From the NCBI GenBank assembly GCA_973895155.1, contig OZ316895.1, forward strand, positions 7,056,184 through 7,120,183: DNA of 64,000 nucleotides, written 5' to 3'. Source of the DNA: Marsupella aquatica. Lineage: Eukaryota; Plantae; Marchantiophyta. Within the stretch, counting starts at the first letter, position 1, and each line of letters starts with the position of its first letter. Made by a program: the position numbers and the translations under genes. This document shows, piece after piece, positions 4,454 through 63,489 of this stretch. The notes under the pieces are model-generated. The model was not told the origin of the DNA, ran no database searches, and worked only from the letters and a program-made list of their open reading frames with translations.

Positions 4454-5870
4454 TCACAATGTGGAAGCTAGCAGATTGGCAACCAATGTGGACTCCGCGT
4501 GCTTCAGCGAATCAACCAATCCACGAGTACCGCAGAAGTTGGCCAGGCTTTGCCACAGAAGAGCCCGGGGGTTCCGTTTCACGTCATCAAAATTTCCAAA
4601 AACACAGAGGAACCGCTTCACTCTTGTCAGCATCACACAAGCTCTGTGCCGGTCTGCGGCAAATAGAGAGAAGTGTTTCCCTGCCACGAGAGAAATCAAG
4701 ACAATGTCACTTTGCTGTCCCTGAAACGAGTCCACGTTGTGAACCGTCACCCTCTCATTCAAGTTCTCTGTTACCAGGAGTTTAGAGATGCATCTGTTCT
4801 GCTCCTCGTACAGCGTTAGAACGACGATATCGTTTCCCGTCTGGCACTTGGTGAGTTTCTGGCATACTTGCAGAATGGCTTGGGCTTCCGCTGTATTGTA
4901 TATGGACGTCTTTCCCTGGTCTTTGGTGGGCACGCCGTGAATGTTGACCCAGAGTAATGGGTGATGCCAATCTCTTTCGTTCCGTCGTGTCGGGGAGGTC
5001 TGTAGCTCGTTCTGATAGATCTCAGCTGAGATGAAGCTGCAGATCGTCGGTGGCATCCGGTACTGCTCCCTGAGGAGCTTGACCTCACAGCCATTGGACA
5101 CCAGGTCGAAAATGCTCGGCACTTTGATGGATCTGGAGGCTTTGCCAGAGCCTGAGAACGGGGGCAATTGGTAAGGATCTCCCAGTACTGTGAGCAGTGA
5201 GAGGTCTGGAAGACAAGTGAGAGGGTATACACAGTCTCCCTCAGCAGCTTGGGAGCATTCATCGATAACCATGGCCGTAACGTTTCCTCCCATCAAGCTT
5301 CTCGTGAAAGCCGGAGAGCCCACTAAGCCAAGGGTGCACACAAGTATTGGTACTGTGCCTCTCTTATTCTTAGTCCGCCAATCTTCGAGAGCTCCGGGGA
5401 GCTCACATCTTGCTTTGGTAACGACAATTGACTTGGCCAGCTTCTCGTAGAATGTTTCGTGCCAATCTACGAAGTAGTCTTCGCTCACTAACAACAACAC
5501 CCCGGGAACTTGCTCCTCGGTCAATGCTTCTGCTAAGTTCCTGGCGGCTACGTTTTGGTAGGCAGTACATAGAAGTACCTCCCGCTCGCCTCGCGCATGA
5601 AGCCACGCTTTTGCGACTGCTGTAATCAAACGTGTCTTTCCTGCACAGCAAGCATTAATGAAGGTTAGAAAGGTACCAGTTCTCCAGATTCCATTCCAAG
5701 CGGGATTCCAAGGCGAGCAACAATTTTATGAATGAGAATGCCAACGGATATGATCATGAGCTGACCTGTTCCTGGTGGCCCTATTGTAGCTGAAAGAGGA
5801 GACGTCAGGATCTGGAGCACTGCCTCTCGCTGGCTAACATTTAAGGAAGCAAAGACATCTTCAAAGTATT
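4454..5870 (-). other. Domain: SF1 Upf1/DNA2/NAM7-like helicase (AAA_11/AAA_12 type) at the C-terminus of the giant gene
   Basis: LNVSQREAV (Q motif), GPPGTGKT split by an intron, AYQNVAA, DECSQ, GDPYQLPP, LREQYRM, NTAEA, VDSFQGQQSDIVLISLV, VMLTRVK. Confidence 0.95.
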
Positions 5871-14800: not shown

Positions 14801-16545
14801 ATCAGCTTGGTTGAGTGGAATGACTGCCATCCACTATTGTTTCCAATGCCACCCAGTAAAAGCTTCAAAAGAAGTAACAGGAAGTCCTGCTCCACGCTTC
14901 TGACGTGCACCTCGTCCAATATTAGATGTGTGATGTTGCCCGCTTTCTGATCCCGTGCCAGCCACTACCACGTACAGAAGCAAACCATATGAGCTTATTT
15001 AACCCAACGATGCAATGTTATCGAAGTCTAGCTGAATCACCATGGCGAACGCTCATACAAATCCAGAGTGAAGGTGAATTATGAATTAGCTTAGGATCCG
15101 ACATTTGATTCGTTGAAGCAATGACGGACATCAATTATTCAAAAAGGGAGGATGCCACAAATTAGAAATTGTCACTAAACATGCTTCAGAGTTCACGTAC
15201 AACTGATACAAATCACCCTCGCTGAATGATCTAATATTAATCAGACTTCAAAACAAATCTGTTTGAGAGCCTCAATTATAATCCTAAATAATTATCGCAG
15301 TTGAATCTCGCCGTTAATCAACTGATGTACGAAGCGATGGTGTCAATCTGGAGGAAAGTAAACTCGATATATCAGATCGACATATGTGAACTGTGAAAGT
15401 GGTCTGGAAAAGTTTGGAGGTCATCTGATATTAGACTGAGTGACGACCGACGACCATATGCTAGCAGAAAGCTTCTATCCAGTCTTCAACTGTTGGCACA
15501 TCATGATTTGAGCAGTTTATAAGTCTGCCAGTTGTGCAACTGCAGCAACTAGTTCGTTTTTTCTTTGCAAGACGACTGATAGCTTCCATCGACTCGAATC
15601 AGCTGCAAACATTGTATAATGAACGATCTGAAACAGAGCCGTCTTCCCCGCCTTTTTCACATAAACTTCGGAAACAAGTCTGTTGCATGGGTAGAAGTTT
15701 TCCGAAGACTTTCTGGGACATACTTCCAGAAGATAGCCGATTGTGACGAAGATGAGTCGAGTCTTCCCAAACGTAGAAGCTCGCTCGTGTGCCACAGCAA
15801 AACCCACATCTATTCCAACTCGTTCCCCCCTTGAGTGGGCTACATACTGTGCTAATGCAACAGCTGCAACTCGTCTCGGTTGTGCAACTATGACGCTTAC
15901 GCTGTTACGTCGTCCTCGAGCAGTTGCATCGTCCAGAATGAACTGTGGAACAGCAGTGCTCTTACCGCAACCTGTTTCCCCCTGCCAGGTCACAATTCAA
16001 AGTTACTCTCCTCTGCAAAATTAATGTCGCCATCCTTAACTGTTCAGATAGGATCCCTATAGAGAAGAATGATCGGAAATCAATAAATTCGTATCTGAGA
16101 GTGCAGATCGGTATTGTGAGGCTGGAAGTCAAAGTATAGTAGCTATCTCAGATGACGCTAGATACGTTTGAGCCCAACACCAAATCTATATAGTTTAATC
16201 CACTAGTCAGATTGCGCAATTGAGTTGTGGTTTCGCCAAACCCACCTGAATAAATGTGATACGGTGATCTGAAATGTGTTGCAGTATGTGTTCTCGATGA
16301 GCTAAGATAAGACTCTGAGTACGGCGATCTGAAATGTGTTGCAATTTGTGTTCTCGATGAGCTACGATATACCTCTGAGAAGTACTGCTATATTTCCGAC
16401 CTCCAGAGGGTGTTGGGTGGCTGCCAATTATTATATCCGGCCTGCGTAGGATGCCTTCCGCTGAGCTGTAGACGATGCCGTGCGCTGGCCTTTGACCATT
16501 ACTGCCTCCGCGGCGTCCCCGTGTCGTGTTCTTTATTTGCTCCAT
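4454..16545 (-). CDS. Giant multidomain nucleic-acid enzyme, ~3205 aa, 11 exons: DEAH helicase + HA2 + KH-like + CYTH-like + Toprim + DEDDy exonuclease + Upf1-like SF1 helicase
   Basis: Exons on the minus strand: 16545-16246, 15981-15724, 14964-13141, 12953-10692, 10512-9136, 8940-8413, 8156-7348, 7157-7076, 6864-6688, 6579-5766, 5640-4454. All introns are GT..AG. The total is 9618 nt, in frame, with no internal stop. Junctions rebuild conserved motifs: TFIQ|GETGCGKST, HKM|ELQRRGL, NDQ|VTSCY, TLEQ|IKYAALD, GPPGTG|KT. Confidence 0.88.
6830..7720 (-). other. Domain: DEDDy 3'-5' exonuclease (WRN/EXD2/Mut-7-like)
   Basis: ExoI LGLDCEH; LIQVST; VLRDQKIVKSGAEVHND (ExoII); SDW...LTLEQ|IKYAALDAWAS (ExoIII YxxxD). 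The last part depends on the 82-nt exon 7157-7076, which the ORF track does not show. Confidence 0.9.
8040..9200 (-). other. Domain: Toprim/primase-like, resembling the N-terminal region of cyanobacterial plasmid Rep (CyRepA1/DUF3854-type) proteins
   Basis: RNLHYQAILEKL..L...HK-ELQRRGL; IPGMNGKG..L...GIFIPARDPSGQITGGQIK; KYVWLSS; GELPL; GLCEGGLKA (Toprim Glu); PVIGASG; FFPDAG; VAWWGQ..K..DDIDDYL. Confidence 0.75.
13480..16320 (-). other. Domain: SF2 DEAH/RHA-type RNA helicase core plus HA2 (N-terminal part of the giant gene)
   Basis: Motifs I GETGCGKST, Ia QPRRVAA, Ib TIGYLL, II DEVH, III MSAT, V ATNVAESSLTI and VI QRAGRVGR; HA2-type LQILGAI...LTPLGRLAVEL. Confidence 0.95.
16261..16380 (-). 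repeat. In-frame 60-bp tandem duplication in exon 1 of the giant gene
   Basis: Lines 16261-16320 and 16321-16380 are near-identical; they encode VAHREHKLQHISDRR and LAHREHILQHISDHR. Confidence 0.9.
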
Positions 16546-42848: not shown

Positions 42849-42908
42849 TCACCCTAGCTAGACACACATTGGAAGCTAGATCATAGACCGTTCCGATTTG
42901 TGATCTAG

Positions 42909-43148
42909 CTAGATGCGGGAGAAGCCTGCGCCGGATGGAAAGTAGTTGACCACAATGGGAATAGGAGCAGACTTCTCTCTGCCCGAAGACCGCTTGCTTG
43001 TGATCTTCTGCTGCTGCTCAGAAACTATACTATCATGTGCACCAGCGTCTCCAACCTTCACATTGCCGAACATTTTCGAGAACCATTTAGACGAGATTCC
43101 TTTCGAACTGACATCCAGTGTCGAGTGAGACTTTTTGGAAGACTCCAT
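42909..43148 (-). CDS. Small uncharacterised plant protein, 79 aa, C-terminal PIVVNYFPSGAGFSRI
   Basis: ATG at 43148 is preceded by an acceptor-like cttgtag|ag. It shares SSKW..K..GN.KV and P.VVNYFPSG.G..R(I/L) with the ORF at 63067-63270. Confidence 0.75.
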   Translation of the reverse strand: MESSKKSHSTLDVSSKGISSKWFSKMFGNVKVGDAGAHDSIVSEQQQKITSKRSSGREKSAPIPIVVNYFPSGAGFSRI

Positions 43149-43761
43149 CTCTACAAGTAGATCTCGCGACTGCACAGAAGCCGTGGGCAGATGGATATTC
43201 AGTATATCGATGACCACTGCCTTTAAATATATTGGACAATGTAAATCTCTGCAGGAGCTGCGTGAAGAATTCTATTTGTCCGCCAAGGATCAAAATCACT
43301 CGACCTGAAGCGTGCTAGAATTGCTTCGCACTACATAGAATGGTTCAATCGTGCTGAACAAATCACAACTTGAGATCATTAGCTCTTGAGATGATGGAGG
43401 TGTACATTCGAATCAGAAGAGCTAGAGGACTTGTGAGTTTGCGCAGCTCTATCATACATTTGTATAGTGGTGGCTGATGGGTACTCGGCATGAAGAAAGG
43501 GCATTTGGAGACCGAATGGGGCGTTGCGTAGGTGTGTCTTCGCGGTCAAATAAGACGAAGTCCTACAACGCGACAATCAAATCGACATGATGACGGATGC
43601 AAAGACCAAGGGAGAAGTCAGATGGAGCCTGTGTTTCAAAGAATACTAGTAAGGGTAGGGTAGGCTATAGAGTTATCGTGCATGGATGCTCACTTAATTT
43701 ACTTCTATAATATACAATGCCATTAAAAAACTCTTTTCGAACAGGAATTAATTTTTTTTTC

Positions 43762-44640
43762 ATTTTTGCTCTTGGATTGATTGACTAGGTATATCAAATC
43801 AATGTCAAATGATATGTTTATTTTAATACTAAAATACAAAAGATGATACTTATGTAACATCTTATATGACATGATACTTATGTGATCATATTATCTGATC
43901 ATCTTAAATGTGTGTTTTTTTTTCAAGCATGAAAGTATACATGAATGGAAGGAGAATAATAAATATTTGGATTTATACATAGCCAATGAAAATCTAGAAG
44001 GAAGGAAAATGGGTTGATTTTTCTTCTTTTTTTTCTTCTCTTTATTTAATTGTACATTTTTCCTGTTTGTTTAATGATGCCAATGTAAGAAAAAAGTGCG
44101 GAATGGAGTGGCATAAAAGTGAAAAAATAGGAAAAAGAGAAAGAGAAAAATTTAAAATATTTCCTTCCCAGTAGTATGAAAGCATCTGGGGTCATCATCT
44201 CTCTTGCACTCAGTCTCACTCTCCCAGATCCATGCTTTCCCAACAATATAGCTTTCACAACAAAACAATATCTTATTCAAAAATAAAATAAAAATGCAAA
44301 AAGCAAAGTCAATTGTTTTTACATATTTTGATTATATTTTTATTTTAGGTTTTATAGAAAATATATCTCAAATCAAAAAATGTAAATACCCATTTTCCTT
44401 CCTTTTAGAGTCTCATAGGCTATGTAAACATCCAAAAATTTATCATGCCCCAAAAGATTCTCCTTCTATTAGTGTGTACTTTCATACTTGAAAAAAGACA
44501 CATTTAAGATGATCAGATGATGACACATAAGTATCATGTCATATAAAATGTGAGATAAGTATCATCTCATATACTTTATATTTTACTAATAAAATAAGTA
44601 TATTTTTTGACATACCTGGTCAATCAATCTAAGAGCCCAA
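43762..44640. mobile_element. Foldback/MITE-like element with ~250-bp imperfect terminal inverted repeats
   Basis: ~43765-44013 (gctcttggattgattgactaggtat...atctgatcatcttaaatgtgt...gaaggaaggaaaatgggt) is the reverse complement of ~44388-44640 (acccattttccttcct...acacatttaagatgatcagat...atacctggtcaatcaatctaagagc). Confidence 0.85.
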
Positions 44641-45317
44641 AAAAATATTTGAAAAAATCTGATGACTCGGGTTTGTTCCCTCCATTCATGAATTTGTAAG
44701 CAGACTAAAAGAGATTTTTGGGACAATCACTATATTTATTAAAACTGAAATTATAAAGGATATAGGGAAATTTGGCGATTTAAAAACATAGTTTTAGGCA
44801 TGAAAATTGTAAATTTGGAAGATGAAAAATGAAAATTCAAGCATCATTAAATGTAAATTTGGGGACAAAAAAATGAAATTTTGGGAAAGTAAAATATTAA
44901 ATTGGATGATATTAAAAAACATTTGGGTGATAAAAGTGTTCATTTGGTTGGAAAATAGATAGAATCTAGTAATAACATATAAGCTTGGATAACATCTATA
45001 TTCAAAACATTTAGCTTGAGTAAGATATCTAACTAAGCACCAATACAATGGAATGACTATATTGTCTAGACAAAGTTAACTAGGATGATATCCAACCTAC
45101 TAGAAGGAATGAAATGGCATCATTTTCTAGAATTAAAATATACTAAGACAAATAAAATAATAATTATAAGAAAGTCCATTCAATAACTTTGAGAGATCAT
45201 AGAGTATTAATTTGATAATACTCTATGATCACTTTAGACAAACGCATGGAAATCAACTCGACCCTCTTAATCACAAGTCATTTGAGTGGAGACTTGTAAC
45301 CTACGAGTTCTATCAAT

Positions 45318-48300
45318 CTACTCATCAATTATACCTTCCATGTAAATTTTGAGAGTTTTCAAAACATTCTTAGGAATTGTCAAACCTCTATCCATAATAT
45401 TTTGTTCTTTAGCACCTGACTTAAACCCATACATTGCAGAATTTGCAAACTGCCAACTTTGAGACTTAACATTGTCAAACCCAGGATCCAGCTCCCAAGT
45501 CTTAGTGGTTTGAAAGCAATGTTCATATTGAACATCATCCTTTGGATCATGCTTACCATGTTTAGGCCTCCACCATTGTACTTGGAACATAGGAGCATTC
45601 CTAAGAGGAATGCTCTCAACAGACGTTGAAGAAGACCCTTCAATATGTTGCAAATCTATTGAGGGAACCTCATGGTTTGGATCCACACCACCCAAAGCTC
45701 GAATCAACCAGAAACGCCCTTTGCCATTTTCATGTTCCCATTCATCCTTTGGACGTAAAAATACAAAGTGACCTTCTTGAATATCTTGTAGAGGAATCCA
45801 ACGTGCAGGTTCTCGCTCTTGTCGTGCACCAACAAAGGGTGCAGCTTGATCTTCCATCTCTTCCATGTACTCATTTTGAAGGTCCATCATCTCTGGATTT
45901 TGAGAAGGTTCACTTGATGGCTGAGATGTCCCCAAAATCATCTTGTAACCTGTGCCATGGTTAGTCTTTGGCCAAAAATCAGTTGTCAATGGCAATTGTC
46001 TTTCCCCCTCCCCTTCTATTGTAAGTTCCTCGGACATTGCTTGCACAAGATTCTCCCAATATTTGACCAGAGGAAATCTCTCTTTATATGCTGCAGAGGT
46101 CTCATCCTTACAACTTTTCTTCAAGAAATCAATATAGCGATTAAGGAATGGGATGATTTCTCCAACCTTCTTTTGTACATCCCCAGATATAGGTTTTGCA
46201 AATGGTTGGCCTTCCGGTAAAATGAGCGCATTTGTGATGGGATCAGTTCTCCAAATGGACCTCCCCATTGCCGGAAGCCAAGGTTGCTTGACATGTGCTT
46301 TATATTGATACACTGGCACATTATCCCTCATGGAGAAAAAAATGCCACTGGTCTTGAGTGACCTTCTATCTCTTTCACCTGGAAAGTTTTCAAATACTCC
46401 TTGTAAGATGCAACCTCTTGAATCAATCGTGGTACAGGATGAATGCTTTCACACTCCCAAACCTCAGCGATCAACCCCAAGAGGGTAGCAACCTCTTTGT
46501 ATCTGACCTGTTTGGATACTTGAGAAAATAATGCATCCGCGTCTTCATGGGTGTGGCCAACCATGAGGAATGACATTTGCACAGTTTCAAACACCCCCTG
46601 CTAACAAGCTCAGTGCAAAATGTCATCACATATTGATTTTTGTTATCTTTCCCTGAATTGTTCATCTGCAACGTTAGGTGCCTTGGTAAGGGCTTGAAAG
46701 AGCCCCTAGTAGTCTCAGGATCATCCTTAGAACCAACATCCACTGTGTTTGACTTTTTAGTCTCTTGACCATCTTCAATGCCTTGAAATCGAACAATTGA
46801 AACATTTTGGGTTCCAAGTAACCGGCCAGAAATGCTTCAAAGTCTAGAAGGGGCTGAAATATTGGCCTAGTTGCATTCCAATTCAATCCCTCAAGAAGGT
46901 CTCCAGTTTTGTCTCCTGTGTAATCTTCCAAATCTCGGAGGCATTTGGCCAAAGATATCACGGTAAAGTCTGCATCTCCAGGCCAAAGTCCAGTCAAACT
47001 GAAATGTGCATACACTCCAAGATCTCTTCCATGGGTTAACATCCCAGTAAGAGCAATAGGCAAAGGCTGACCACTACCAGAGAGGGATTTTGGAGTGGGG
47101 ACCAACATGGGGATCCAAGTCTTGGCTTGATCCATCTTATCGTGAATAATGCAAAGATAGTTTTGAGGATCCTTCTTTGCAAGAACCCTATGAGCAAAGT
47201 AAACATATCTTCTTGACATTTGTTCACGAAGATGTCGCGCTTTTTTCTCTTCAATCTCTGCACGCTCTTTTTTTCTCTTCTCCCGCATCAATTGATCTTT
47301 GAACTCAGTGCAAAATGTGCACTTGGCAAATGCACTTCCCTTGTGAAAGTCAAAATTATCAAATGAGTTTTTCCAGATGTTGTACATAGTAACTTCAGTA
47401 ACCTTAGCAAACCCATCTAATTCCATCTTGGTAAACACCTCTTGGAAAATCTCCTTCTTAGTAAAACAAGATGGGAGCCGATATTCAATAGTGTCAGTGC
47501 CGTTGGACCCACCATAGGGAAGATGTGGCATTGGTTCCCCATTTTGGATTAAAATGGACTCCAACAAGGCGCGAGCGTGCAAAGTGCTTGATCGTGTCTT
47601 CCGTTGTCCCTGATTTCCATGGAAACCAATTGTGCAGCCTGCTTCGTATTGATTTTTGTAGTCATAGTACTTTGTTGTACTGAACCCATGCATTTTAATA
47701 AATGCATCTTTACAAACCACACGTCCCTTTAGAACAAAAAATCCCTTTCTCTTGACTTGCTCCTCTCTACACCCAAAGAGACTAAAGATGTGACTTGTTT
47801 TGTTGTCACTTGATATTCCATGGTATTCCCTCCTCATTGCCTCTAAGTCCTCCCTGGGCATGTTCAAGCAACACTTCAGCTTGCAACAACCTTCTCTTTG
47901 GATGGAATCAATGGACTCCTCGGTAATTTTCAAAAGTGCCCTCGACTCCAAATGCCTTTTCTTCTTCTCCTCAAGATCAACTTTTGTCCTCCTAATGAAA
48001 TTGTATGGTCTTTTTGTAGGTTTACCATCACCATCCGAATCCAGATCGCCCTTAGTTCGACCCGACTCCATCCACTTCTCTAAAACTTCCTCAAGGATAT
48101 CCCCAAGAAACCTTTGAGATGAAATCAATAGAAGGGATTTGATTTCCCACCTCACCAAGCCAGGGGTACCAACACAGATATTTGGAAATAATCTGGGTTC
48201 ATTGATATTCACAACAGCAACACCAACATGATCTGCACCAAGAAGTTCATCGTCAATGGCACCTGTTTCAAATGGGACCGTGATAACATCTGTTGCAACC

Positions 48301-49034
48301 TTCCAACAACGAGAAACGTCATACAAATCAACCTCCTCCGCCATCCAGTTGGAACGTAGTGTAAAATCTTTTAATGGAAGATCATTGAAAATATTTGAAC
48401 TACCAAACACGCCAAAATCTCGTAGAGTGCCCTTTCTAGAAACATGCGCAACATCCCAGATAACCCAGGTATGCAAGGCCTCTTCTATTGTATCAGCTCC
48501 AGGGTGCGAGTATGGTAATTTTTGATTTCCCTTAACAGTATCAGATATTCTTAAACTGATGCGACCAACCCCGAGTGTTTCAGTATGACAAATATCCATC
48601 GGATTTGTCTTGAAAACGACTCCATTTGCAACCAATTGATAAAAAATGAACATCTGAACTTCATCTCCTTCCTTGAACACGTCCTCTTCAACCCTTGCAT
48701 CAATTTTGGATTTATCATTTCCAGCATCTCCAGCCAAAGAGAAATCATCAACATTGATTCTTCGGCGCTGAGTTGATGACCTCAAGTATGCCAATGCACA
48801 ATCCCAAATCATGCAGGAGTCAATTGCCTCAGCCAATGTAGAAAATTTGGGCGAAGGAAATGGAATTTGACGCGATCCATCAAAACACTTTTCGATCAAT
48901 ACCCCAATTCGATTATCCCCTAGACAAATGTTCTGTATAGTATCCTGGGGGTCAACCTTTTGAACTATCCCAATTGCCGTTTCAAATCCATCGATCACCA
49001 ATGACACTTCATCCCCTCGTGTAAAATTGATCAT
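45318..49034 (-). pseudogene. Transposase pseudogene: 3 x Tnp1/En-Spm-like N-terminal repeats + Sola/DUF7869-like DDD core + C-terminal SH3/Tudor-like region
   Basis: FAKCTFC; IIHDKMDQAKTWIP; LTLQMNNSGKDNKN (normally LQxDN..xNKN, so D>N here); FLMVGHTHEDADALFS. The core is spread over four ORFs by frameshifts near ~46800, ~46595 and ~46335. The N-terminus has three G.EV...VA.G.V...LG...V.I...P...W(D/E) units. Confidence 0.8.
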
Positions 49035-49160
49035 GATAGCGGACTATCTATATTCAAATAAAGTTAGAAATTGTTAAGTTCCCCATGTTACAATCATGTT
49101 TCAAAATCTGGACTCTCCTCCAAAAAATATTGTAAAATCACTCAAAACCCTAAATACATT

Positions 49161-49488
49161 CAAGTCGGGTCGGAATTATTTCGACCCTCCTCCAACATTA
49201 TGTCTTAAAATGATTGAATTGACTAAACATTTACAAGTCGGGTCGGAATTATTTTGACCCGACTCCAACAATATGTCTTAAAATGATTGAATTGACTAAA
49301 CATTTACAAGTTGGGTCGGAATTATTTCGACCCTCCTCCAACAATATGTCTTAAAATGATTTAATTGACTAAACATTTACAAGTCGGGTCGGAATTATTT
49401 TGACCCTTCTCCAACAATATGTCTTAAAATGATTTAATTGACTAAACATTGACAAGTTGGGTTAGAATTATTTCGACCCTACTCCAAC
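49161..49488. repeat. 73-bp tandem repeat (4.5 copies), each with a hairpin, upstream of the transposase
   Basis: Units start at 49161, 49234, 49307, 49380 and 49453. Each contains agtcgggtc-ggaattatttt/c-gaccc(gact); copy 2 has a perfect 9-bp stem. Confidence 0.95.
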
Positions 49489-50776
49489 TATTAATTTGAA
49501 ATTATGTCAAAACTATTTGTGAAACTATCTTGCTTATGCTTTTATATACCAGTTTAAAATGCTAGTTAAGATGACCTAGTCAGGTCGGCACGAAATAATT
49601 CCAAACCACTTCTAGAAACTATGTTAGTATCACATAAAGGGGTACAGTAAGTTCTACACATGCTAGAGTGTGGATAAAGGTCTAGAAATGAGTAAAATAT
49701 ATGATCTAGAACCTAATGTGTAAATCTTAATCTAGGTTTGGCTTAAAGGTATTGAATTAGATGTAGTTGAGCTAGTACTTCTAAGATAAATAAATAAAAT
49801 CACTAACCTGCTCCGCAATATATCTCTGCCCACCCTTGTACAAGCTAAATGGGTACCTTGGATGCCAGCATTGTAACTCTTAGCACCACAGTGCTCACCA
49901 GTGCCCTTACTAAACCTTGCATTCAACCATGCGGACCTAAACAAGGCACTCGGACAGAGGAGAGTCAGTGATCGTACCAATCACTGTCTAAATGACAATG
50001 AACCAAAAAATGGATTGTGGGAGGTCTATACTCAGTTTGAGAGGCAAAAAGCCCACACATTACCCAGCACACGAGTGGACACCAACAAATCGGGCACGGG
50101 TGGATGAGGCACGCACCCAGCACACAAGTAGACATTGGATAGGGTGTCAGCCAATCACTCACGAGTGATAGGTGAGTTGCGAGCACACACCGCTGACAGC
50201 TCGGAAGTTTAAAATTGGTAGGTGAGTCGCGAGTGGTCGTGAGTGGTCACACCATCGGTGACTCACGATCACATGCAGCGAGGAGGGTCTCCATCATTGG
50301 CATGCATTGATGCCTCCATACCCTCTCGGATCCTTGCCTCCTCGGACTCCTCGCTCGCAGGGGGTATAGGAAGGAAGGCCTTGCGCTTGAGGCCTCATTT
50401 CCTTGCCTCCCTCTTGCCTCGCTCTAGGACTTTTGTTTTTGCCTCGCTCTTGGAATTTTGTTTCCGCCTTGCTCTAAGTCTTTTATTTCCGCCTTGCTCC
50501 CTTCCCTTTTGGGTCGCTCCCTCGATCATTATTTGCCTGTTAGTGCCCTCTTGCAGCCTGTGGCATTCTCCATTGCTGCCACGTGTCATCTTAAATCTCA
50601 CTCGCCCCTTACAATGTCTACTTCCTCCAGTTCTGAAGCTTCCACCACCTCCGCCAGTTCTGGTATGAATATGAACTTGAAGACCCAGATGTCCAAAAAT
50701 TGGTTAACAATGCGTTGGAGGCGTCAAAGAAAGCCCAGTTAACTTTTCCACGTAAGGCACCACCTGCTTCAACTTC

Positions 50777-53700
50777 TTGCCTCGCCCTAAGGGCGAGGCA
50801 ACATTACTTTAATTTGGATTTCAAACTTCTTATTAGAAAAATTTCTATATTCCTTTGCAGTCGCCTCGCCCCAAGGTCGAGGCGACGTCTACTTCATTCT
50901 AGATTTCTTGTTGCTCCGAAGGCGTATTGGACCTTGTATCTTACATTAATAAAGGATCTTTAGCTATATTCTATTTTTTGCCTCGCTCTTGGGGCGAGGC
51001 GATGTCGTCTGCATTCCTAAAATGTAGTCTGCATTCCCAGAAGTTGCCTCGCCCTTGGGGCGAGGCGATGTCCTCTGCATTCCTAAATGTTGTCTGCTTT
51101 CCCAGAAGTTGCCTCGCCCTTGGGGCAAGGCAATGTTGTCTGCATTCCTAAATGTTGTTTGCTTTCCCAGAAGTTGCCTCGCCCTTGGGGCAAGGCGATG
51201 TCGTCTGCATTCCTAAATAATGTTTGATTGCTTGGATGAGGTGGCAGGGCTAATTGCACTAGGAGCAAAGAAGATTTTGCAATCTTCTATTTGTCGCCTC
51301 GCCCCAAGGGCGAGGCACCTTGAAAGTTTTCCACATGTCAATGTTAAAAATATGATGCTAACCATTTTGTTGTCAATTTTTCTTACCAGGAAAAAATCTT
51401 GAGAAGCCGGAGTTAAATATTATGGACGAGGATATCAAGGACTTTGTTTTCCCTGACCAAGATACTCCAGGATTTAGATGGGCACTAGAAGTTGGGGTGT
51501 CGGCGGAAGGCAGTCTCTTGATTTGTTTCAAGGGCCTCACAAGTCAATTGAATGACCGCAAGACAATTGTTACTCTAGGTCCAGTCGTCCTTGTGAACAC
51601 GAACAACAACCGCAATGCAACGATTATTGTTGAGTCCAATGAGAAATCTCAGTGGATGAGACTTCTGGTGCCAATAAAACTCTACTTGACTTTATTGAAT
51701 GTTGAGTGGATGGCTCGATTGGAGATAAGCGTAGCTGATATGGGATTCTTCCCAGATGCAGTAACAATTGATCAGATGTTTGAGAAGACGCGTTCTCAAA
51801 TAAGTGTCTGAGTTGACCTAGTGTTTGGATTTCTCTACGTAATGAAGCACATGCATGACAATGCGGACAGTGTGGACCCTCCGTCTACTTGGATAGTTCA
51901 AAGGATGATTGAGAAGGCACATTTTTCATATGAGCAAGCAATCGACAAGAGTTTCATTTTTTGTCCAGAGTTTCAAGAGGCCGCGTGCCCCCTGGGCCCC
52001 CAGCATTATTAATAATAGGCTGGACGTGCGAACGGATGAAGGGTGCAAAAAATCTGATTTGAGATTAATTTTTATAATTGGCTTAGAAATATCAAGGGAT
52101 GGTTTTATTCAAAGAACCTTTTCTAACTAATATAGGCTTATATAAATGTCACCCAAATTAATATGCTTCAAGAGGTGATGTAATATGGATGTGACACGCG
52201 TCACAATAGGATTGGTCCTTGTGGTCACCCTTTATTGGAACATGTGTATATGACATATAATTATGCTTGCAACATCTATGATTCAGAGTAGTTTAGGACT
52301 TTGGAGCTTTTGAACCCTGACTACCCTGCCATGTGGTTCAAAAATGCCCCAAAGTTGAAGTTTGGGGTTAAAGGGTCACGAACACAAAAATGTATGTACC
52401 CAAAACCCTTCTAAAACACTCCCATCAGTTTTAGAACCGTTTGCACATGATAAATTTATAACTTTTCAAGGCTTTCATAAATGGTGTAAAATGTGAAATT
52501 ATAATATCTCAAAGGGGCAGATTTATTCTCCAAAATTAAGTTTTTAAGAATAACAAGAGAAATTTTTATAGGCTTCCAAAAATAATAAGGGGTACTAGGG
52601 AGGGGGGTGTACGCACGTATACCTCTTTAGTTTACAAAGGCTGGGGGCCCAGGGCGCGTGTCGGACGTGGATTTCAGAGATGAAGAAAAAAGAAGCAAAG
52701 CATAAGGCAAAGGAGAGAAAGAAGACAGTGGAAAGAAGTGCGCAATCAAAGACAGAGAAGAAACGAAAGCTTTGAGAGCCGGTTGTTCAACAAGAGACAC
52801 AATCTGGGAGTTCACGCCGTAAGAAGATGGCTAAAAAAAATGAAGATGATGAGGGCCCCCAAAAAAAGGAGACAAAGAAGGCAAAGGTTGCGAAATCAAA
52901 ACCAATGTCAGCGTCGACTTCAAACTTTGTCTTGCATCCAGAGGATGATATGTGTCTGACAGAAGGACCCAAAGAAGATGATGTGCTCAAAGGCCAAGAG
53001 GTTTTGCGTAATATTGAGCATTATTATACTTTTGGCATCCGCAAAGTTTTTGATATTCCTGTAAAAAGTATTAATCCGCCATCGGCCGTTTTTGTATATT
53101 GAATGTTCAATCTTTCGCATGCAATGGAGATATCAAAGTCTATGATGAAAAACCCTGGACAGGAACCACAAGTTGCTGATTTGATTCCGTATCGCGAGAG
53201 CACTAAACAGTTGCTTCATTATGACAACACACCTCAGGATAGGAAAGAGTTTTTGATTGGTGTGAAGAAGCATGAGATCCAATTCCTTGCCATCAGTGGC
53301 CAGCATTCTGCAAGAGCTGCCCAATGGATCCAAGGGTGGGCTGAGACTGACGCCAAGCTGACAGATCTTGCCAACAAACTAAAGTATAGGAAAGCAAGGA
53401 TCCTATCTGACCTCACTCCGAAGACAATTTTGGTTGAGCATTCAAGTTTATCGAATGTTGTCAATGATACTATGCAATTTAAGTCTTGTTTTTTAGAGAC
53501 TATTGTTCATGCACGAAGGCAGTTTGAGGAGTGCGGGAAACCGCCGCGTCCAGGGATTGGGACCAATCAAAATACAGACAGGAAAAACTATCAGGTACAT
53601 GTTGGAGCAACACAAACTATTCTTGATCCGCTTTGTTTAAAGATTGACAATGGTAGAGGTTTGCCTCGCCCCAAGGGCGAGGCTGCCTTTTCTTGTTTTC

Positions 53701-53843
53701 CTTGGTTAGAAGATTTAAGCAAATGTTTGCCTCACCCTCAGGGCGAGGCAACCTAGACTAGTCTCTCTAAGAATAATTCCCTAGTTCCGTTTCAGTCAAT
53801 TGCGGTTAGATGTAGAGGTTCGCCACGCCCTTGGGGCGAGGCG
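50777..53843. repeat. Ten copies of the palindrome GCCTCGCCC-N3-GGGCGAGGC (seven in intron 1, partly as a 65-bp tandem array; three in intron 2)
   Basis: Copies near 50777, 50862, 50978, 51044, 51109, 51174, 51295, 53661, 53727 and 53821. The first is a perfect TTGCCTCGCCC-TAA-GGGCGAGGCAA. Confidence 0.92.
51988..52654. mobile_element. Nested ~667-bp MITE inserted in the cargo gene exon
   Basis: TIRs CCCTGGGCCCCCAGC (51990-52004) and GCTGGGGGCCCAGGG (52640-52654). Direct repeat CGCGTG at 51982-51987 and 52655-52660. Removing the insert restores the reading frame QEAACRTWISEMKKK. Confidence 0.88.
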
Positions 53844-56800
53844 GCTTAGCCTGTTTCAAACAAAGGTATAAATTTTCTAACATATGCATTGTACCCTGAA
53901 ACTAATGTCAAGTCCATTGGATATGCAGGATTGGTTTGCCCTGGCAAAGGTTACAATGGGGAAGTCAAGCCTAAAGAGCATTTATTAGTTACTTTTTGCC
54001 AAAGATGAGCTCTTTGAATTATGGCGGAACGTGTGTGCAAAATGGTTGAGTGGGAAGCTCCAAGACGGGGCTGGTGGGTATGGAGGGCCAAGACCCCCAA
54101 AATTGATCACTCCCGGTACCTTTCGATGCTTTGAAGGAGAGATTAGTAGCAAACAGATAATTGAGATCTTGAAGGACGTTGAAGAGGAGCGTGTCTTGCT
54201 GAAGAAGGATATCACCAACAAATCAGAGCTTGTCGCAATGGGAGACTTGGCCCTTACAATCAAGATAATGTCCAAATTGATAACAGTCATTATTGGCTAT
54301 TTCGTGGAAAAGTATCGTGAGAAGTTTCCTGTTGGCACATCTTAGGAGTCTCTGGTGATATTGTTGCCTTCCTTGAAATCTGAGCTTGAGATGACAAAAT
54401 TGAGGAGAGCAGCGGGTGAGGTTTACCTCAACAATTCATTGAAGAATGTGGTCAAGGAGAGTTTCTCACAAAGTCTGATGGTCAGACTAGATGGGTTGTA
54501 TTGTAAAGAATTTGGTGGGATTGGTCATTCTCGCACGGAGCCTTTCTTGACATTTTTTAGTGATAATTTGATGAAGACGACCGTGCCGGAAATGCTACAA
54601 GAGCCTTCGCCTTTGTGTCCTCTTGCCATTGTTGACTTCAGTAGGCTCCGACAACATGTTTGGACCGATGCTGAAATTATTGCATTACTGCAATACATTG
54701 TGGATCTTCCAAGAAATCCAACAATTGTTGTTGTCATGACTGTGCATCCGGGGCCACTTGTTGCAAACATTTTGAGTGCCCTTAGGAAATTGCAACATGA
54801 AAAGGGAATGGACATCCACGTTGACTACGGGAGCTATCGACGGAGTGATACACCAGTTCCAGAGGGCTTACTTTTCAGTTGTGGTATGGAGGAGATAATC
54901 TTTGCAGGAATCACCACTGAGGAGAAATTTGATTGGAAGCAAGTGTTCAGGCCTAGATTTAATTGCCAATTTTCTTACAATTTGGCGATCGACCTTGATT
55001 TCCAATTAGTGGAAGACAAGACGGAGAAGCGAGATAAGAATAAGAGTAAGACAAGTAAGGAGACAGAGACTGAGTCAACTTCGGCATTTCACATTGGAGA
55101 TTTCTTACGAAAGGCTCCCATGTTTGAGATGGTGGGAAGTAGAGGTGGCTTTGTGAATATTCACGCTAAGCCAAAATGTATGCTGCAGAGTATTATTGAA
55201 TTTTTTTCGGCTGAAGGGGAGACTATACTTGACTTTTTCTCAAGAGGACAGGTTATGAAGGTGTCATTGTTGTGTTTCAGAGAATGTTTTGCGTATTCAC
55301 ACACTGAGGATGAATATGATTTCACTCAGGCATATGGAAGGGTTCTCTGCAAGAAAGTTCCTTCCATAATGAGTAACCGGATGGGCGGTTCCAAATTTGG
55401 TAGAGCCCACGATGGGGTTTCCGAGCATGTTTGCGCCAAAGAAGGCGTAGACCAAGGCGAAGATGAGATTGAGGAAGGAGAATTGGGTCACAACACAGAC
55501 GACATGGTCACCCGAAATTTGGATGAACGTGGAACACAAGTGGTAGGTATTCCCTACTTTGGTGTGGGGTTGGCCGATGTTGTGGGTCGACCTGAGGGCG
55601 ACCCACCAAGAAATCCCTTTGCCGGTGTAGAGAATTGGATGCACCAGTCGGACCCAGATCTTACATAGTCCACATCGGACGCACATTGGAAGGCAACCGC
55701 AGATGATCTAGGCAATATTGACGCAGTAGAATTGGGAGAAATGTCAGACATTGCGCTTGCAAAGGAGGATGATCGTTAAGTACCTGAGACCGCTGCAAAT
55801 GAAGTAGAGAAGGCAGGTGCTTCAAATCCTCCCCTGTCTCCTCTATATTGCTCATCAGAGACTAAATTGGTTTTTACAAGTGCTTCTACAGGAAGCCCAG
55901 TAGTATTATCATTTTCACAAAATTCTGGATCCGAGATCGGCAAGACTGGATATATGAAAATAGTCCGTCCTGCAACTGATTTTATATGGAGAAATGGACC
56001 AAAGGTTGGAATGATAGAATCACTAGACGATGCTCCAAAGATAATGGCAAAATCAGATTACAAAAAACTGAACTTGAGACTGAGCCCAGTTTTTGCACCC
56101 CCATCCTTTGAAGAGCAACTTCCCAGTGGTATCAATTCTGAGATACAGAGTGTTCTAGGTGATCAAACAATAGATGAATTTGGGCATTTTAAGCATTGGA
56201 AATTATTAGCCCTTTCTTTGGTTCTTGGTATTTTAATGACAATCTAAGCTTTATCTTTGTAATAATATACTTTTTTACAGACCAAAGTTCCGTCGTAGAA
56301 TCTCCTTCCTCAAAGGATTTTGTTGGCATTCCCTCGGAAAGCGTTGCTATGGAGGAAGGGTTTGACCCAGGTATACTTTGGATCTAAAAAATGGCAAGTG
56401 AATGTAATTAATGTTTTTCTAGGAGGGTCGCCCCAGGGTCGTTCCTCTCTACTTCAAATGCTATGACAAAGTTTGTTTGATTTCAAATTTTGAGAGTTTT
56501 CCTCCGTAGTAATTGTTTAAACTTTGAGTCGCATTGACTAAGGCTTATTTTAATATTTCCAGAATTCACTCCAATACTACACTCTCAGATCCGGCGAAAG
56601 CTCTTGGTTCTTGACCTTAACAAGATTTGTTGGGATTGCATTAAGACCAGAAGCTCAGGACCATGCCGAAATCAGACAAGTTTACGTGGTGTGCACTGGG
56701 GGAGACGTGGAGGGTTTAATTTCATGTATGTGGAGCGCCCATACCTCCACGAATTTCTATATGCAGCTTTCATGGTTTTTGATGTCACAATTTGGACCTG

Positions 56801-59800
56801 TGCAAGGAGGCCAAAAAAAATGGAGTTGATTTTCACTGAGGAGGAGCGACAGAAGTTCAAGTTTGTCTTTACTCAAGAAGATACCTTTGATAGTTGCATC
56901 CAAAGGCCAGATATAACAGATGGGAAGGCCAATTTACTTATGAAGAATTTGCAAACCATTTGGGACCGTTTTCCAGAAAAATATGATGCTTCTAATACAG
57001 TTCTTATTGATGATTCTCCATTGAAGGCATTTTTGAATTATGACGTGAATGGATTGTTTCCAAATCCATTTACTCACACAGCTTCAAATGACACTTTTTT
57101 TGCCCGAGATATTATGGCCGTATCTTTGCAAATTGAGAAAGGCTTACTGCGTTCAACATTATATCACTGTCAACAATCCAAAGTGGTTTGTTTTCAATTT
57201 ATTAACAAGCAAGGAGGATCATGCTGCCATCTATGCTCTTTTGGAACAGAAGTGGGGAGATTGTCGTTGTATCCATAAGGAGTTTGGAACCATCTTGGAT
57301 GTGACTCCTGAAGAGATTCCTTGGGACGAAAAGAACGAGGTGCAGCATTACCCACCACTGGAGACGTGGACCACGGATGAGATCGAAGAAACTGCAAACG
57401 TAATACTTGGAGACAACTATTCTGGTCCTCATAGACAAAATAGAAGGCATTTTATTTGGAAAGTTCTCAAAACTAGGGATCTCACCAATAAGTTTAAGAA
57501 CCACCATGCGAGAGATACTTGCAACCGTGACATCCGCTATGATAAATCAGGAAGCAGACTTTCTTGTTCAAATGAGTTTTGTCTTGATCATTAGGAGATA
57601 GGGTTGCTCTAGTGCCTACCCTGAATTGTACATTCATATTATGTCAAAGGATATGTTTTGAACATGTTGGATAAAGTAAATAATTAGGATATGCTTAGTG
57701 TGAGGCTCTCTCACTGGACTGGACAATTTAATAATTTTATAGTGGGTCAATCTCATTTTGACCCTTGATTTATGACCATCTATATTTTTTAATTTATAGA
57801 TGGTCTGAGTGGTATTGGCCTCTGATTTTTGGACTAAATCAAATTTAATCTAATTTTTAAATTAATTAGAATATATGATTTAAGTTATTATTAAACATTT
57901 GGGTGAAAAAAAACAAAATTTTGGGCGTTCAAAAGTGTATATTTGGGCTGAAAAAAATTAGCTTTTGGGAATGCTTTAATAGAAATTTGGCCTGAAAAAA
58001 TTAACTTTAGGGTTCATCTTATGGACTTTTAAAAGTACAGTTTTAATGAATATAGTGATCACATTGTTATTATAGAAGTAGATAATTATTTGAAGCAATC
58101 GTAGTATATACGAGTCTTCTGGTGAGAACATCACTGTTTCTTACAATTAAAATTGAGGAGTCCAAAATCAGATCAAACACTTTACTTGTTAGTTGGAGAG
58201 GAAATCATGCCAATAAGTGTAAAGTGTGTATGAACACTCATATGTTCAAGGCATATGCTGATACACTAAAAAATACGAGGTGTGAAGTAACTATCAGGCC
58301 CGGGGTGACTTGTGGACTAAGAGTCAAAGATGAAACTCGAATGATGAATCATTATTGTAAGCATTTCAATAATATGTTGTAAAATAACCAAATGCCAGAA
58401 TGCACAATACATGGGTGTATAGGTGATTTGCCAGAGTTTGATTCAAAATGTGATCGAATATACTACATACTTTCTCAAAAGAACATCAGCTGTTTCTATC
58501 AAAGACAGAATTAATTTGGCATCTATTAGACTGTCATAACATTCCATTGATTCCTAAATATGATAGTATGTACATATTCTGTCATTCGTGTCAGGATTGG
58601 AAGATGGAATCAAAACATTAGATTGAACGTGCTAACCATCTGCGTGATCACATCGAAGAGTTCTTGAAAGAGTGCAAAGTATATGATTACAGAGGTGTTT
58701 GAGTTCAACCTATCAATAGACAACAATTAGATACTCCTGACAGAAATATATCTTACAGAACTATAATAATCCCTTTCAAGTGTATATTGTGCATTCATGA
58801 CCAGCACATTTGTGATGAACAGAGACTTGGACCTGCATGTTATCAAATAGGTCTTAGTATTAGATATTTTGCTCACATTAGGACTCACTTAAAGATGATT
58901 CCATTAGACAGAGAAACATATATATTGCCATGCCTCAACAAAGAGGAGAATGATGGGGGAATGCTTCTCACTTTATGTAAGTACAATTTGAAGATGACAC
59001 GGTATGAATTGATTGAACACTTGAAAGGTGTATATTGTATATACTAGAGTAGTAGTTAACTAAGACGCGCATACATAGATAACTCATTAGTTACTCAATT
59101 TCACGCGTTCAGCTTCCATTTTGGCCCGATCCTCTTTAAATCTTCTCATACTATTGTGATTGATTACTCATGATTCTTCCTTTGCAGCCTCTACTAATAC
59201 TTCACTATTTTTCACGACATCTTTCAATGCTTTAACCGATGACTCCTCTTTTACCAAATCTTTGGCCAAACTCTCATGCAATGTTGTAACCTGCTTACTG
59301 TGTTGGTGCTCTAATCGACTGATCTGAGTTTTTACTGTGGCAACATTTTTCTTCTATGACGTCACTAAATCATTATGGATCTTTAATGCATCGGCAGCTT
59401 CATTTTTTTGTGCTTCCAGTTATTTATTGAACTCATCTATATCGGCCTAAGCTTTAGAATCTCATACCCCTTCATACTATTATTAGACTTGCTTAACATA
59501 TATGATAGTATACTTGAGAGATTTGACAATGTCATTCAAATTAGTAACTGTCTATTGTCTTGAGTTTTCATTATGAAACTCATCCCCAGCCTAACATCCT
59601 GTAAATTATCTGCATCTGAAATTGCTTTTGAGCCACCATCTTAAACCTTTTAATCATTTTTAACTTCTTTTTCTTTCTATTTTATACATCAACTTGAGTC
59701 ACTTATGTTTTACTTCTCTCCTACGTTTTAATGGTCTTGATTTTATTCCTTGGCAATAGACCTATACAAAGTAGTCTATACGTCTCTCAAAACAACATTG

Positions 59801-60519
59801 AGTAGCATATTAGCATGTTCCGATGATGAATCCACATGTTGAATTTCATGGATTGAATGCTTACGCCAATACTCTTCTTGATATTGCTCCAGTCATTGGA
59901 TTTTACACTAACTAAAATTTTTATCACTGAGGATGTCTTCAGACCACAATCCACCTGGTAAATCCTTTTCAATTTTAAAGTCAGATAGTATATTTCAGAT
60001 ACGTTCTCATATGCTTCAGTCCTTCTTACACTATCTCATCTTTGTAAATATGACAATACATTTTTTTTTGTCTGTTATTCATCTTGGTGCCCATCTGCAG
60101 GTAATTCAAGTGATTCTGTGCATATTATGTTATCTCTCGTGTGTAAATTGTTCAATTCTTGCAAACTATCCATGATATGCTCAGCGTTATGACACATCTG
60201 TTCATCTCGATCTACTACATATGGTCAATTTCATTGTCCTTCGACTCTCCACATGCAAGTTGAGTATTGAAGGTCAACTTCAACTGAGGTTGCTGATCGA
60301 TCGATGAATTTGACTAGATTATTCTCGGTTGTGTACATCTTCTCTATTGGGATGACCTGAGATGATCTATGTTCCACTATAGAATCCGTTGAGTCTTTCT
60401 CAACACATCCATTAAGAGCACAAAATAATCTGATGGCTCAGGTTTGTTCCCCTCCATTTATGAATTTGTAAGCAGATGAAAGATCTTTTTGGTGGCATAT
60501 ATTGCATATCATAAAATTA

Positions 60520-61035
60520 GATTAATCCATTTTTTATATCATTGGGGCCAACCTGCAAGTACACAGCCCACACGTTGGGTTTGTCATACCCAAGGTCTCC
60601 ATGATAAACTCTTAGCTATTGTTTTTATATCACCAAGGATAAACCCATTGTTTTTTCCCTATCATTAGTGCCAACTCACAAGTGCACAACACACATGATG
60701 TATTTTTCATACCATGATAAATCCAATGGTTTTTTTTACATCACTAGAGATTAATCCATTGGTTTATATATCATTAGGGCCAAGTTGCAAGTACACAGCC
60801 CACGTGTTGGATTTGTCATACCATGATAAACCCTATTGTTTTTTATATCACTAGGATATTGTTTTTTTAAATATCACCCCATTGTTTTTTATAACATTAG
60901 GGCCAAATCTCAAGTTTAGGGTACACGACCCAGTTCGTTTATAGGATCATTTTGACACTTCCTATTATTTTTCATATCACTAGGGATAAACCCATAATTG
61001 TGTTTTTTAATCATTAGAGCTAACTTGCAAGGACA
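60520..61035. repeat. Degenerate ~115-bp tandem array
   Basis: Recurring tatcatt(a/g)gggccaa.ttgcaagtacacagcccac...tttgtcataccatgataaa near 60535, 60660, 60768, 60890 and 61010. Confidence 0.7.
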
Positions 61036-61620
61036 CTCAAGGGTCTCACTACATGGAGACCTCCCCATCACCTGCCATGATTTTTGGCCTTGGGGTCCCT
61101 AAAATGTAATATTTTATTGCCTGAATTTTTAATGTCAAGTTGTCATGAACTTTGCGAGAACCTAGCACATTTTCAAAATGTGCATGACATCTTGTCTACT
61201 TACTCTACAGGCTCATTACAGACATCAACTGTTAGGGACACATTACCTTTGAATTTGGCAGATTGGGTTGATTATTTGAAGAGTTTTTGGATCTTCATTT
61301 TTAAGCAGCTGAAATTTTCCTGTATGGTCTCTAATGTCCAATGTATTGCCTTACAAAGTTTGAAACCTTTTTGAAATCATTTGTTTCATTTCCGATGAAC
61401 ATAAAGATGGTCAAATATTCTAAATCATGATTTCACTTTACACTTGAATATTTTCATGTGGATCAACTGAGAAAGAGTATTCCTGAGTAATGACATGACA
61501 TCTTGATGTCTTTCAGGTTCAAGGTAGTCAAGTTACCCAGGAGACCAGTTAGATAATGTAAGTCAGATCAGCTGCAAAGTAACTATTATTTAAGAGATTG
61601 TTTACAAGTTGCATTTGAGT

Positions 61621-63066: not shown

Positions 63067-63270
63067 ATGGGTTCCTCGGAGAATAATGCTGGTGGTGCAC
63101 CGAAGAGTTCCAAGTGGTATGGTAAACTGATCGGAAACAGCAAGGTGTCGAGTTCAGATGGCGAACCGAAACAAGCAGTGCCTGAGGTGCACAAGGGACG
63201 ATCGGCATCGAAGTCGCCACCTCTCGTCGTGAACTACTTCCCATCCGGCCAGGGGTTACTTCGCCTCTAG
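63067..63270 (+). CDS. Small uncharacterised plant protein, 67 aa, paralog of 42909-43148; C-terminal PLVVNYFPSGQGLLRL
   Basis: MGSSENN...KSSKWYGKLIGNSKV...PPLVVNYFPSGQGLLRL; two conserved blocks are shared with the paralog. Confidence 0.75.
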   Translation: MGSSENNAGGAPKSSKWYGKLIGNSKVSSSDGEPKQAVPEVHKGRSASKSPPLVVNYFPSGQGLLRL

Positions 63271-63489
63271 CTAGATCGATCGATCAAGCATCAGGGATCA
63301 ATGGCTTGCAAATTACTTTTAATTTCAAATTATCGTGCTCGATTGGCTTCTCAATGTGGGATAATCGAGCAGGGTGCTGGCTTCCCGCTGCAAATAGCCC
63401 GAGCTACAGCTAGTTTACGATAGTTGTCTATCGGATTGTCAATGATCTATCTGGACATTTGCAGACCACTCGTCATCATTGAGCGTTGC

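Follow-up and report, generated by a model that had tools for sequence, protein, structure and literature searches.

A multi-copy liverwort transposon whose cargo gene pairs a predicted ParB-type domain with a predicted methylase fold of degenerate motifs, and a candidate palindromic target site

The window analysed here, a 64,000-nucleotide stretch of contig OZ316895.1 from the liverwort Marsupella aquatica, contains a 13,330-bp DNA transposon at 44728-58057 that begins with CACTA, ends with TAGTG and is flanked by AT on each side. Beside its transposase, the element carries a cargo gene with a predicted ParB/Srx-fold domain and a beta-class methylase fold, followed by a haloacid dehalogenase (HAD) domain of the NIF/FCP1 family. 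The combination of a candidate target site with a transposon cargo whose three enzyme-type folds are all disarmed is apparently undescribed: no published description of the cargo family was found in the literature searched, while Repbase, genome papers or supplements may catalogue the element. The features of the element are as follows, those of the cargo gene being predicted from the sequence and from homologs.

44728..58057, no strand: whole DNA transposon, a dead copy of a multi-copy family (inverted termini; contig depth steps up and down at the limits)
44728..44757, plus: left terminal inverted repeat, starting with CACTA, AT before it (44726-44727)
45318..49043, minus: transposase gene of the DUF7869 type, with CxxC, HDKMD and GHTHED motifs and a frameshift near 46804 (Pfam, Atlas, motifs)
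49124..49488, no strand: tandem array of five 73-bp units, with a palindrome of the GGGTCG-N9-CGACCC type in every unit
50614..50751, plus: predicted cargo exon 1, ATG and donor in the sequence, 31 bases shorter than the high-depth contig
50752..51389, plus: predicted cargo intron 1, with seven GCCTCG-N9-CGAGGC palindromes
51390..53594, plus: predicted cargo exon 2, encoding an N-terminal domain, a lysine-rich linker and the ParB/Srx-fold domain (homologs P0001-P0014; fold of P0003)
51990..52654, no strand: nested non-coding hAT-like miniature inverted-repeat transposable element (MITE), 665 bp, interrupting exon 2 (skipped by contigs of all four runs)
about 53020-53594, plus: putative ParB/Srx-fold domain with the box SGQHSARA (fold of homolog P0003)
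53595..53928, plus: predicted cargo intron 2, with three palindromes (homolog open reading frames, ORFs, break at the same spot)
53929..56209, plus: predicted cargo exon 3, encoding a helical domain, the methylase fold, an acidic linker and a C-terminal segment that is conserved; the family frame stops at TAG 56207-56209
about 54532-55356, plus: beta-class methylase fold, DFSR at 54634 and DFFS at 55231
56281..56370, plus: predicted small exon in frame with NIF, own ATG at 56349, phase-1 acceptor fitting donors 56129 or 56159
56563..57594, plus: NIF/FCP1-family HAD domain (DLN at 56613) and cysteine-rich tail, frameshift at 57095 (Pfam; homologs P0071, P0072)
58028..58057, minus: right terminal inverted repeat, ending with TAGTG, AT after it (58058-58059)

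The left and right terminal repeats match at 26 of 30 bases, and a repeat scan pairs 44726-44757 with 58028-58059 in inverted orientation (32 nucleotides including the AT, 88%). Contigs from four of six listed runs, covering three organisms, were aligned onto positions 43600-61200 of the window, and their depth was high inside the element limits and dropped outside; one contig begins at 44726, and seven of run X5 enter unlike sequence behind 58059. Those flank contigs of run X1 that are identical to the window had a depth of 11-18 versus 420-480 for long element contigs, which points to a family of many near-identical copies, contig depth not being equal to copy number. The same run holds a second, diverged subfamily (depth about 286-349) with patchy matches over 44954-57457, whose contigs follow the order of the element from the left terminus through transposase and cargo to NIF. 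A first-pass annotation, made from the letters alone, had called the gene transposon cargo, and the limits, the termini and the transposase confirm this.

The transposase was recognized by Pfam (PF25273, E 4.5e-20 and 4.9e-9) and by Atlas (0.92, DUF7869), and at its frameshift near 46804 other copies have one extra base. This decayed copy contains CxxC and no H(3-4)H. The N-terminus (48430-49030, minus strand) carries an 85-aa repeat in two clear copies, 35% identical to each other, and perhaps a third, for which no Pfam match was found. CACTA..TAGTG termini with a short terminal inverted repeat (TIR), as seen here, are described for plant CACTA/EnSpm elements (PMC10741241). The canonical 3-bp CACTA target duplication was rejected, the flanks reading AAT on the left and ATC on the right with AT alone in common. 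Sola transposons are described with a 4-bp target duplication (PMC10741241); none occurs at the CACTA limits, and GACA/CACA (3 of 4) results if the AT is counted into the termini. From the single insertion examined, the AT could be a 2-bp target duplication or could belong to the termini. The element resembles the CMCT clade, yet we do not class it as canonical CACTA or Sola. As far as that source describes them (PMC12730594), TIR elements with TET cargo and the CMCT clade share with it a cargo of the DNA-modification type, CA..TG termini, 2-5 bp duplications and CxxC. They differ in that the TET cargo retains its catalytic residues, unlike the Marsupella cargo, and in that the CMCT transposase has C(2)C plus H(3-4)H, whereas the transposase here is of the DUF7869 type.

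The cargo gene of this copy is dead, the family not obviously so. Relative to the high-depth contigs, the copy has lost 31 bp in exon 1, gained 3 bp that create a stop at 51807, received the 665-bp MITE (15-bp inverted ends; 8-bp flanking duplication with 7 of 8 bases matching) and acquired extra bases at 56191 and 57095, besides the frameshift in the transposase. The stops at 52773, 53100, 54343, 55666 and 55777 are sense codons in the contigs of run X1, in line with the earlier suggestion of a dead copy with open-framed relatives. A sixth stop, at 53986, falls outside the listed differences (40 of 48), and homologs have Trp there; a frameshift near 53985 was considered and rejected, as an in-frame TAG stands at 53986. 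The copy diverges from the contigs by about 1.5% (25 in 1,675 bases). Among the 40 listed differences 23 are C-to-T, affecting 5.1% of CG, 2.4% of CHG and 0.5% of CHH sites, and such decay at CG and CHG is the pattern expected from host 5-methylcytosine (5mC). Relatives at 20-61% identity retain long open frames, which argues for selection on the protein.

The motifs on which the first-pass annotation had built were found in the sequence where it placed them. The methylase region gave a weak Pfam match on the window ORF (N6_N4_Mtase, E 0.012), an Atlas features score of 0.93 and a family-profile match to M.RsrI (E 1.7e-8). A predicted model of 54346-55356 (mean pLDDT, predicted local distance difference test, of 75; core above 90) matched beta-class methylases over residues 63-337 (Foldseek 8.8e-10). 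CcrM (Z 16.7, root-mean-square deviation, rmsd, 3.9, 213 aligned), M.BceJIV, MboIIA, HpyAVI, RsrI, PvuII and rotifer N4CMT scored Z 14.6-16.7, and METTL3-type chains lower, up to Z 12.4. The model predicts a Rossmann amino-methylase fold in permuted order, with the catalytic strand before the S-adenosylmethionine (SAM) motif; a beta-class methylase had been suspected from the letters.

The usual catalytic residues of this fold are missing throughout the family. Of the 93 methylase segments aligned, 63 cover motif IV; the Asp is kept in 59/63 of these and PP is present in 0/63, typical forms being DFSR and DLTH; (D/N/S)PP(Y/F/W) occurs nowhere in the domain in the 92 methylase-domain relatives. 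Motif I reads DFFSGG in 35/48, one residue shorter than in the controls, and the DFFSRG of this copy is a copy-specific change. At the acidic position of motif II, whose acidic residue contacts the SAM ribose, the family has A, S, V, T or H in 53/53 and an acidic residue in 0/53, while the controls have Glu in 21/21 displayed bacterial and phage sequences (22 controls were chosen for DPPY-type motifs). The DPPY equivalent had been called degenerate, and rightly, but damage to this copy was rejected as the cause: the degeneration is common to all relatives covering the site, so that the loss is old and shared across the family and does not reflect decay of this copy. The proposed search for an intact (D/S)PP(Y/F) among relatives yielded 0/63 at the site and 0/92 in the domain. 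Since these residues are missing in all relatives checked, the cargo probably does not methylate DNA.

Nevertheless, the methylase might be active through an altered site, writing N4-methylcytosine (4mC) or N6-methyladenine (6mA), for instance at palindrome CGs where it would block 5mC, or modifying RNA. The retained motif IV Asp and DFFSGG and the confident core of the model would fit such an enzyme, bacterial enzymes combining DFFLGG with an intact DPPY exist, and 4mC writers of bacterial origin are reported to work in Marchantia (bioRxiv 10.1101/2021.02.12.428880). Against these stand the 0/92 and 0/53 counts above, set beside 21/21 in displayed controls, and the report that changing SPPY to APPA abolishes the activity of rotifer N4CMT (PMC8885841); we regard activity as quite unlikely. 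The Marchantia enzyme MpDN4MT1 is described with TSPPY (bioRxiv 10.1101/2021.02.12.428880), and N4CMT of bdelloid rotifers as needing SPPY (PMC8885841). Both, like the cargo, are eukaryotic proteins with the beta-class amino-methylase fold (Z 15.2 for N4CMT structures against the cargo model), and, as far as these sources describe them, are active host genes with their motif, whereas the cargo lacks it, is transposon-borne and is fused to ParB. Because the TSPPY/SPPY motif is lacking, the cargo, judged by its sequence, is placed outside the active 4mC writers. The parallel to these writers drawn in the first-pass annotation fails on the same grounds, (D/N/S)PP(Y/F) and the acidic SAM-binding residue being found in no relative. 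In liverworts, the lineage with 4mC, the cargo may represent another acquisition, or a renewed use, of a bacterial beta-class methylase, here stripped of its catalytic motif. Anyone who counts genes of the N6_N4_Mtase or FCP1 type in Calypogeia or Riccia would need to take this into account.

METTL14 is a pseudo-enzyme with an amino-methylase fold that has lost its catalytic residues, and METTL14 chains were among the structural matches of the methylase model; METTL14, however, needs an active partner, and none was seen in the Marsupella element. The methylase domains of DIRS1 elements likewise have the fold without the catalytic residues, but are described as derived from PCIF1-type group-2 enzymes and as lying in retroelements (PMC4738411).

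The window piece with the ParB-like motif had no Pfam match. Its Calypogeia homolog P0003 (59% identical) was modelled with a pLDDT of 87, and the top matches of this model were ParB, Noc, KorB and sulfiredoxin, with phage ParB proteins also present. Z was 9.7 against Myxococcus ParB and 8.9 against Caulobacter ParB (rmsd 2.6, 98 aligned), and matches to ParB-parS and KorB complexes cover both P0003 domains (Z 7.9-8.0). The modelling therefore predicts a ParB/Srx N-terminal fold, which agrees with the region's first-pass assignment. Like prokaryotic ParB, Noc and KorB, the cargo combines a predicted ParB/Srx fold with a following helical domain and has palindromic sites nearby, and phage ParB-terminase loci are described with ParB beside methylases (PMC4738411). 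The cargo differs in its box and in its eukaryotic introns, and no donor was found in the profile, viral-contig, phage and tree comparisons. The box GQHSxxA is present in 18/18 sequences, Ser replacing the Arg of GxxRxxA, which is described as the ParB CTPase signature (PMC13495010); an analogous box is DGQQR (PMC10164549). Upstream lies a conserved N-terminal domain of about 200 aa (51390-51988), found in 10 relatives, for which a sequence search with 51390-51806 gave no Pfam or PDB match.

Every named cargo relative is a protein of one of two liverworts, Calypogeia fissa or Riccia sorocarpa; among 45 profile matches no Marchantia-named protein occurred. ParB and methylase regions stand in a single protein in 6/111 relatives, including the 1,009-aa P0069, with many of these rows being near-identical Riccia copies. 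About 40 profile-matched Riccia gene models look like transposon cargo, and the same domain order was found in two distant liverworts and in the second subfamily. P0069 had no match among 50,697 phage records, and PHROGs and NCBIfam gave weak matches only, to the SAM-motif end of methylases. No relatives in viral contigs were found in the scans, and the metagenome scan yielded two loci, the short relative L001 and the ordinary bacterial methylase L002. The latter (2165-3154) is a beta-class enzyme with DPPY and DFFLGG and 18 relatives in bacterial and archaeal genomes, and served as a control. A tree of 30 family domains of at least 200 aa (of 93) and nine canonical controls separated the two sets by a long branch and named no donor. 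ParB-HTH (helix-turn-helix) methylase fusions described in chlorophytes and chytrids are group-2 enzymes (PMC4738411).

The NIF domain was recognized by Pfam above the cut-off (PF03031, E 4.6e-14), as the first-pass annotation had proposed. FCP1/SCP phosphatases have the catalytic motif DxDxT/V; here, DxN or DxE stands in 9/9 aligned sequences, the host control P0073 included. The element NIF is 30-33% identical to Riccia NIF and 31% to a Penstemon host protein, and being equally near to both it might stem from separate captures. A suggested link to RNA polymerase II C-terminal domain phosphatases is unsupported, owing to this motif and to a NIF no closer to Riccia's than to the flowering-plant protein. 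NIF is likely a plant-derived pseudo-phosphatase adaptor. After it comes a cysteine-rich tail (57400-57594; CxRD...CSNExC), common to P0071 and P0072 and without a match in the three Riccia models tested, which is possibly a zinc finger.

Whether NIF belongs to the cargo protein divides the evidence. High-depth contigs lack base 56191, and their main frame stops ahead of NIF, at TAG 56207-56209. The segment leading up to this stop is conserved, 7/7 long homolog ORFs shown terminate no more than about 20 residues away from it, and the small exon that follows has an ATG of its own. The main-frame product would have 1,325 aa and a spliced three-domain form 1,682 aa; donors 56129 and 56159 match the acceptor at 56281 in phase, and the frame continues into NIF. 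Methylase and NIF are joined in 13 of the 40 profile-matched Riccia gene models, two of which also have ParB (P0081, 1,265 aa), these joins being predicted gene models. The proposal that all three regions form one gene is thus supported by the Riccia models, while the family frame speaks against it unless splicing occurs, and we consider a spliced fusion about as likely as not for this family. NIF would be made within the spliced 1,682-aa form or from a separate short gene beside the 1,325-aa form.

The cargo might also be functionless captured sequence with NIF as an unrelated fragment, as the similar identities to Riccia and Penstemon, the unmatched tail and the dead copy would allow. However, the high-depth contigs of the family have open frames where the displayed stops stand, and two distant liverworts and the second subfamily show the same domain order. 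Nor is NIF a one-off fragment of this copy, as had been considered, but a stable companion at the same position in the Riccia models and the second subfamily. For the ParB and methylase part this explanation is largely refuted, and as a whole we hold it to be very unlikely.

The candidate target site is a 21-bp palindrome, GSSTCG-N9-CGASSC, of which the element contains 21 in eight clusters between 45244 and 57764. Nineteen of the 21 are non-coding, non-coding sequence making up 29% of the element. With up to two mismatches the window has 29 matches (6.2 expected), 21 of them inside the element, and 9/9 perfect ones lie inside, although the pattern was drawn from the repeats themselves and these chance figures are flattering. 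A spacer of 9 yields the eight clusters, spacers of 5-8 and 10-13 yield 0-2, and the arm types GCCTCG and GGGTCG share the spacing. The palindromes occur in both cargo introns and upstream of the transposase, and isolated ones lie close to each end of the element and in the NIF intron. The stretch that separates the two divergent genes (50150-50510), likely a shared promoter region judging from its sequence, contains clusters of CTCGC/CACTCACGA-like half-sites.

We posit, with a probability of roughly 0.4, that the cargo is a non-catalytic DNA-binding protein of self-recognition, which recognizes the palindromes and acts against silencing in the manner of VANC. The ParB-plus-helical part, possibly derived with the methylase from a prokaryotic module, would bind the palindromes in the way that ParB binds parS, itself a palindrome. 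DNA may be gripped or shielded by the methylase shell, which would write no mark, and the element would stay expressed or mobile against host methylation, as with VANC21. More specifically, the ParB-fold protein might load at the palindromes and spread a shell of disarmed methylase that shields the element from 5mC silencing, a version we consider unlikely. The broader suggestion of a chromatin or anti-silencing role is plausible from the sequence, and more so given the palindromes. VANC is likewise an accessory gene in a DNA transposon, the Arabidopsis VANDAL, a Mutator-like element; VANC21 is described as acting through motifs in the non-coding parts of VANDAL21, binding a short motif in intron, intergenic and terminal non-coding DNA that often forms tandem repeats (PMC5735166), a distribution which the palindromes share. 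The two differ in transposon class and in site (9 bases versus a 21-bp palindrome), and the Marsupella cargo has predicted ParB and methylase folds.

Few transposon proteins that counter silencing are understood, VANC in Arabidopsis being the best case, and the family would add another candidate, unrelated to VANC and with its target sequence named. If correct, the version with loading at the palindromes and spreading would amount to a eukaryotic ParB/parS-like system in the service of a transposon and to a device unrelated to VANC.

Besides the way the palindrome pattern was chosen, several points weigh against self-recognition. At 16/21 sites the arms pair over 7-9 of 9 bases, so that hairpins or transposase sites are possible, and the only related locus examined for palindromes, L001 (1.8 kb), has none. 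The helical domain alone matches the ParB DNA-binding domain weakly (Z 3.3), and the ParB fold was modelled on P0003, not on the window piece. Asp97 was equated with the Asp of DPPY from strand order and aligned ranges rather than by residue-level superposition, a global sequence-profile alignment having misplaced motif IV, and the near-identical Riccia copies mean that the counts overstate independence.

Bound by the cargo or by the transposase, the palindromes could instead serve to assemble a transposition complex or to regulate the divergent promoters, with the cargo as a cofactor comparable to maize Spm TnpA, which binds subterminal repeats, or MuDR MURB and no effect on silencing. The CACTA-type termini are compatible with such a role, as are the palindromes close to either end and those that separate the two genes. 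Accessory proteins that bind transposases are known, as described for MURA-MURB (PMC12973397). Most palindromes, however, occupy internal introns at a distance of 4.4-7.1 kb from the closer end, unlike subterminal repeats, and a cofactor needs no methylase fold; we therefore judge this role rather unlikely. It is improbable, too, that the protein is a decoy or scaffold which engages host proteins such as RNA polymerase II or chromatin readers through its NIF and methylase shells and binds no specific DNA sequence, the palindromes having another cause. All three enzyme-type motifs are degenerate, and the likely inactive methylase domains of DIRS1 retrotransposons have been proposed as mimics (PMC4738411), but a decoy leaves the fixed-spacer palindromes and the kept ParB-plus-helical module unexplained.

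Around the element, a foldback element with long nested inverted arms lies immediately to the left (43763-44641), and a 70-bp direct repeat (87%) flanks the transposon at 44652-44721 and 60423-60492, with high-depth repeats after both copies, which suggests a favoured insertion context. Two short ORFs, one on each side of it, have paralogous ends in inverted orientation that share a C-terminal motif (42902-42953 and 63226-63277). An Rfam scan of 44000-61000 gave no match. The window genes are eukaryotic and include intron-split helicase and PHD genes. In the host gene region at 4454-15996 (minus strand), DEAH-type and SF1 helicase domains are separated by exons without a Pfam match, which look like exonuclease and primase-like segments.

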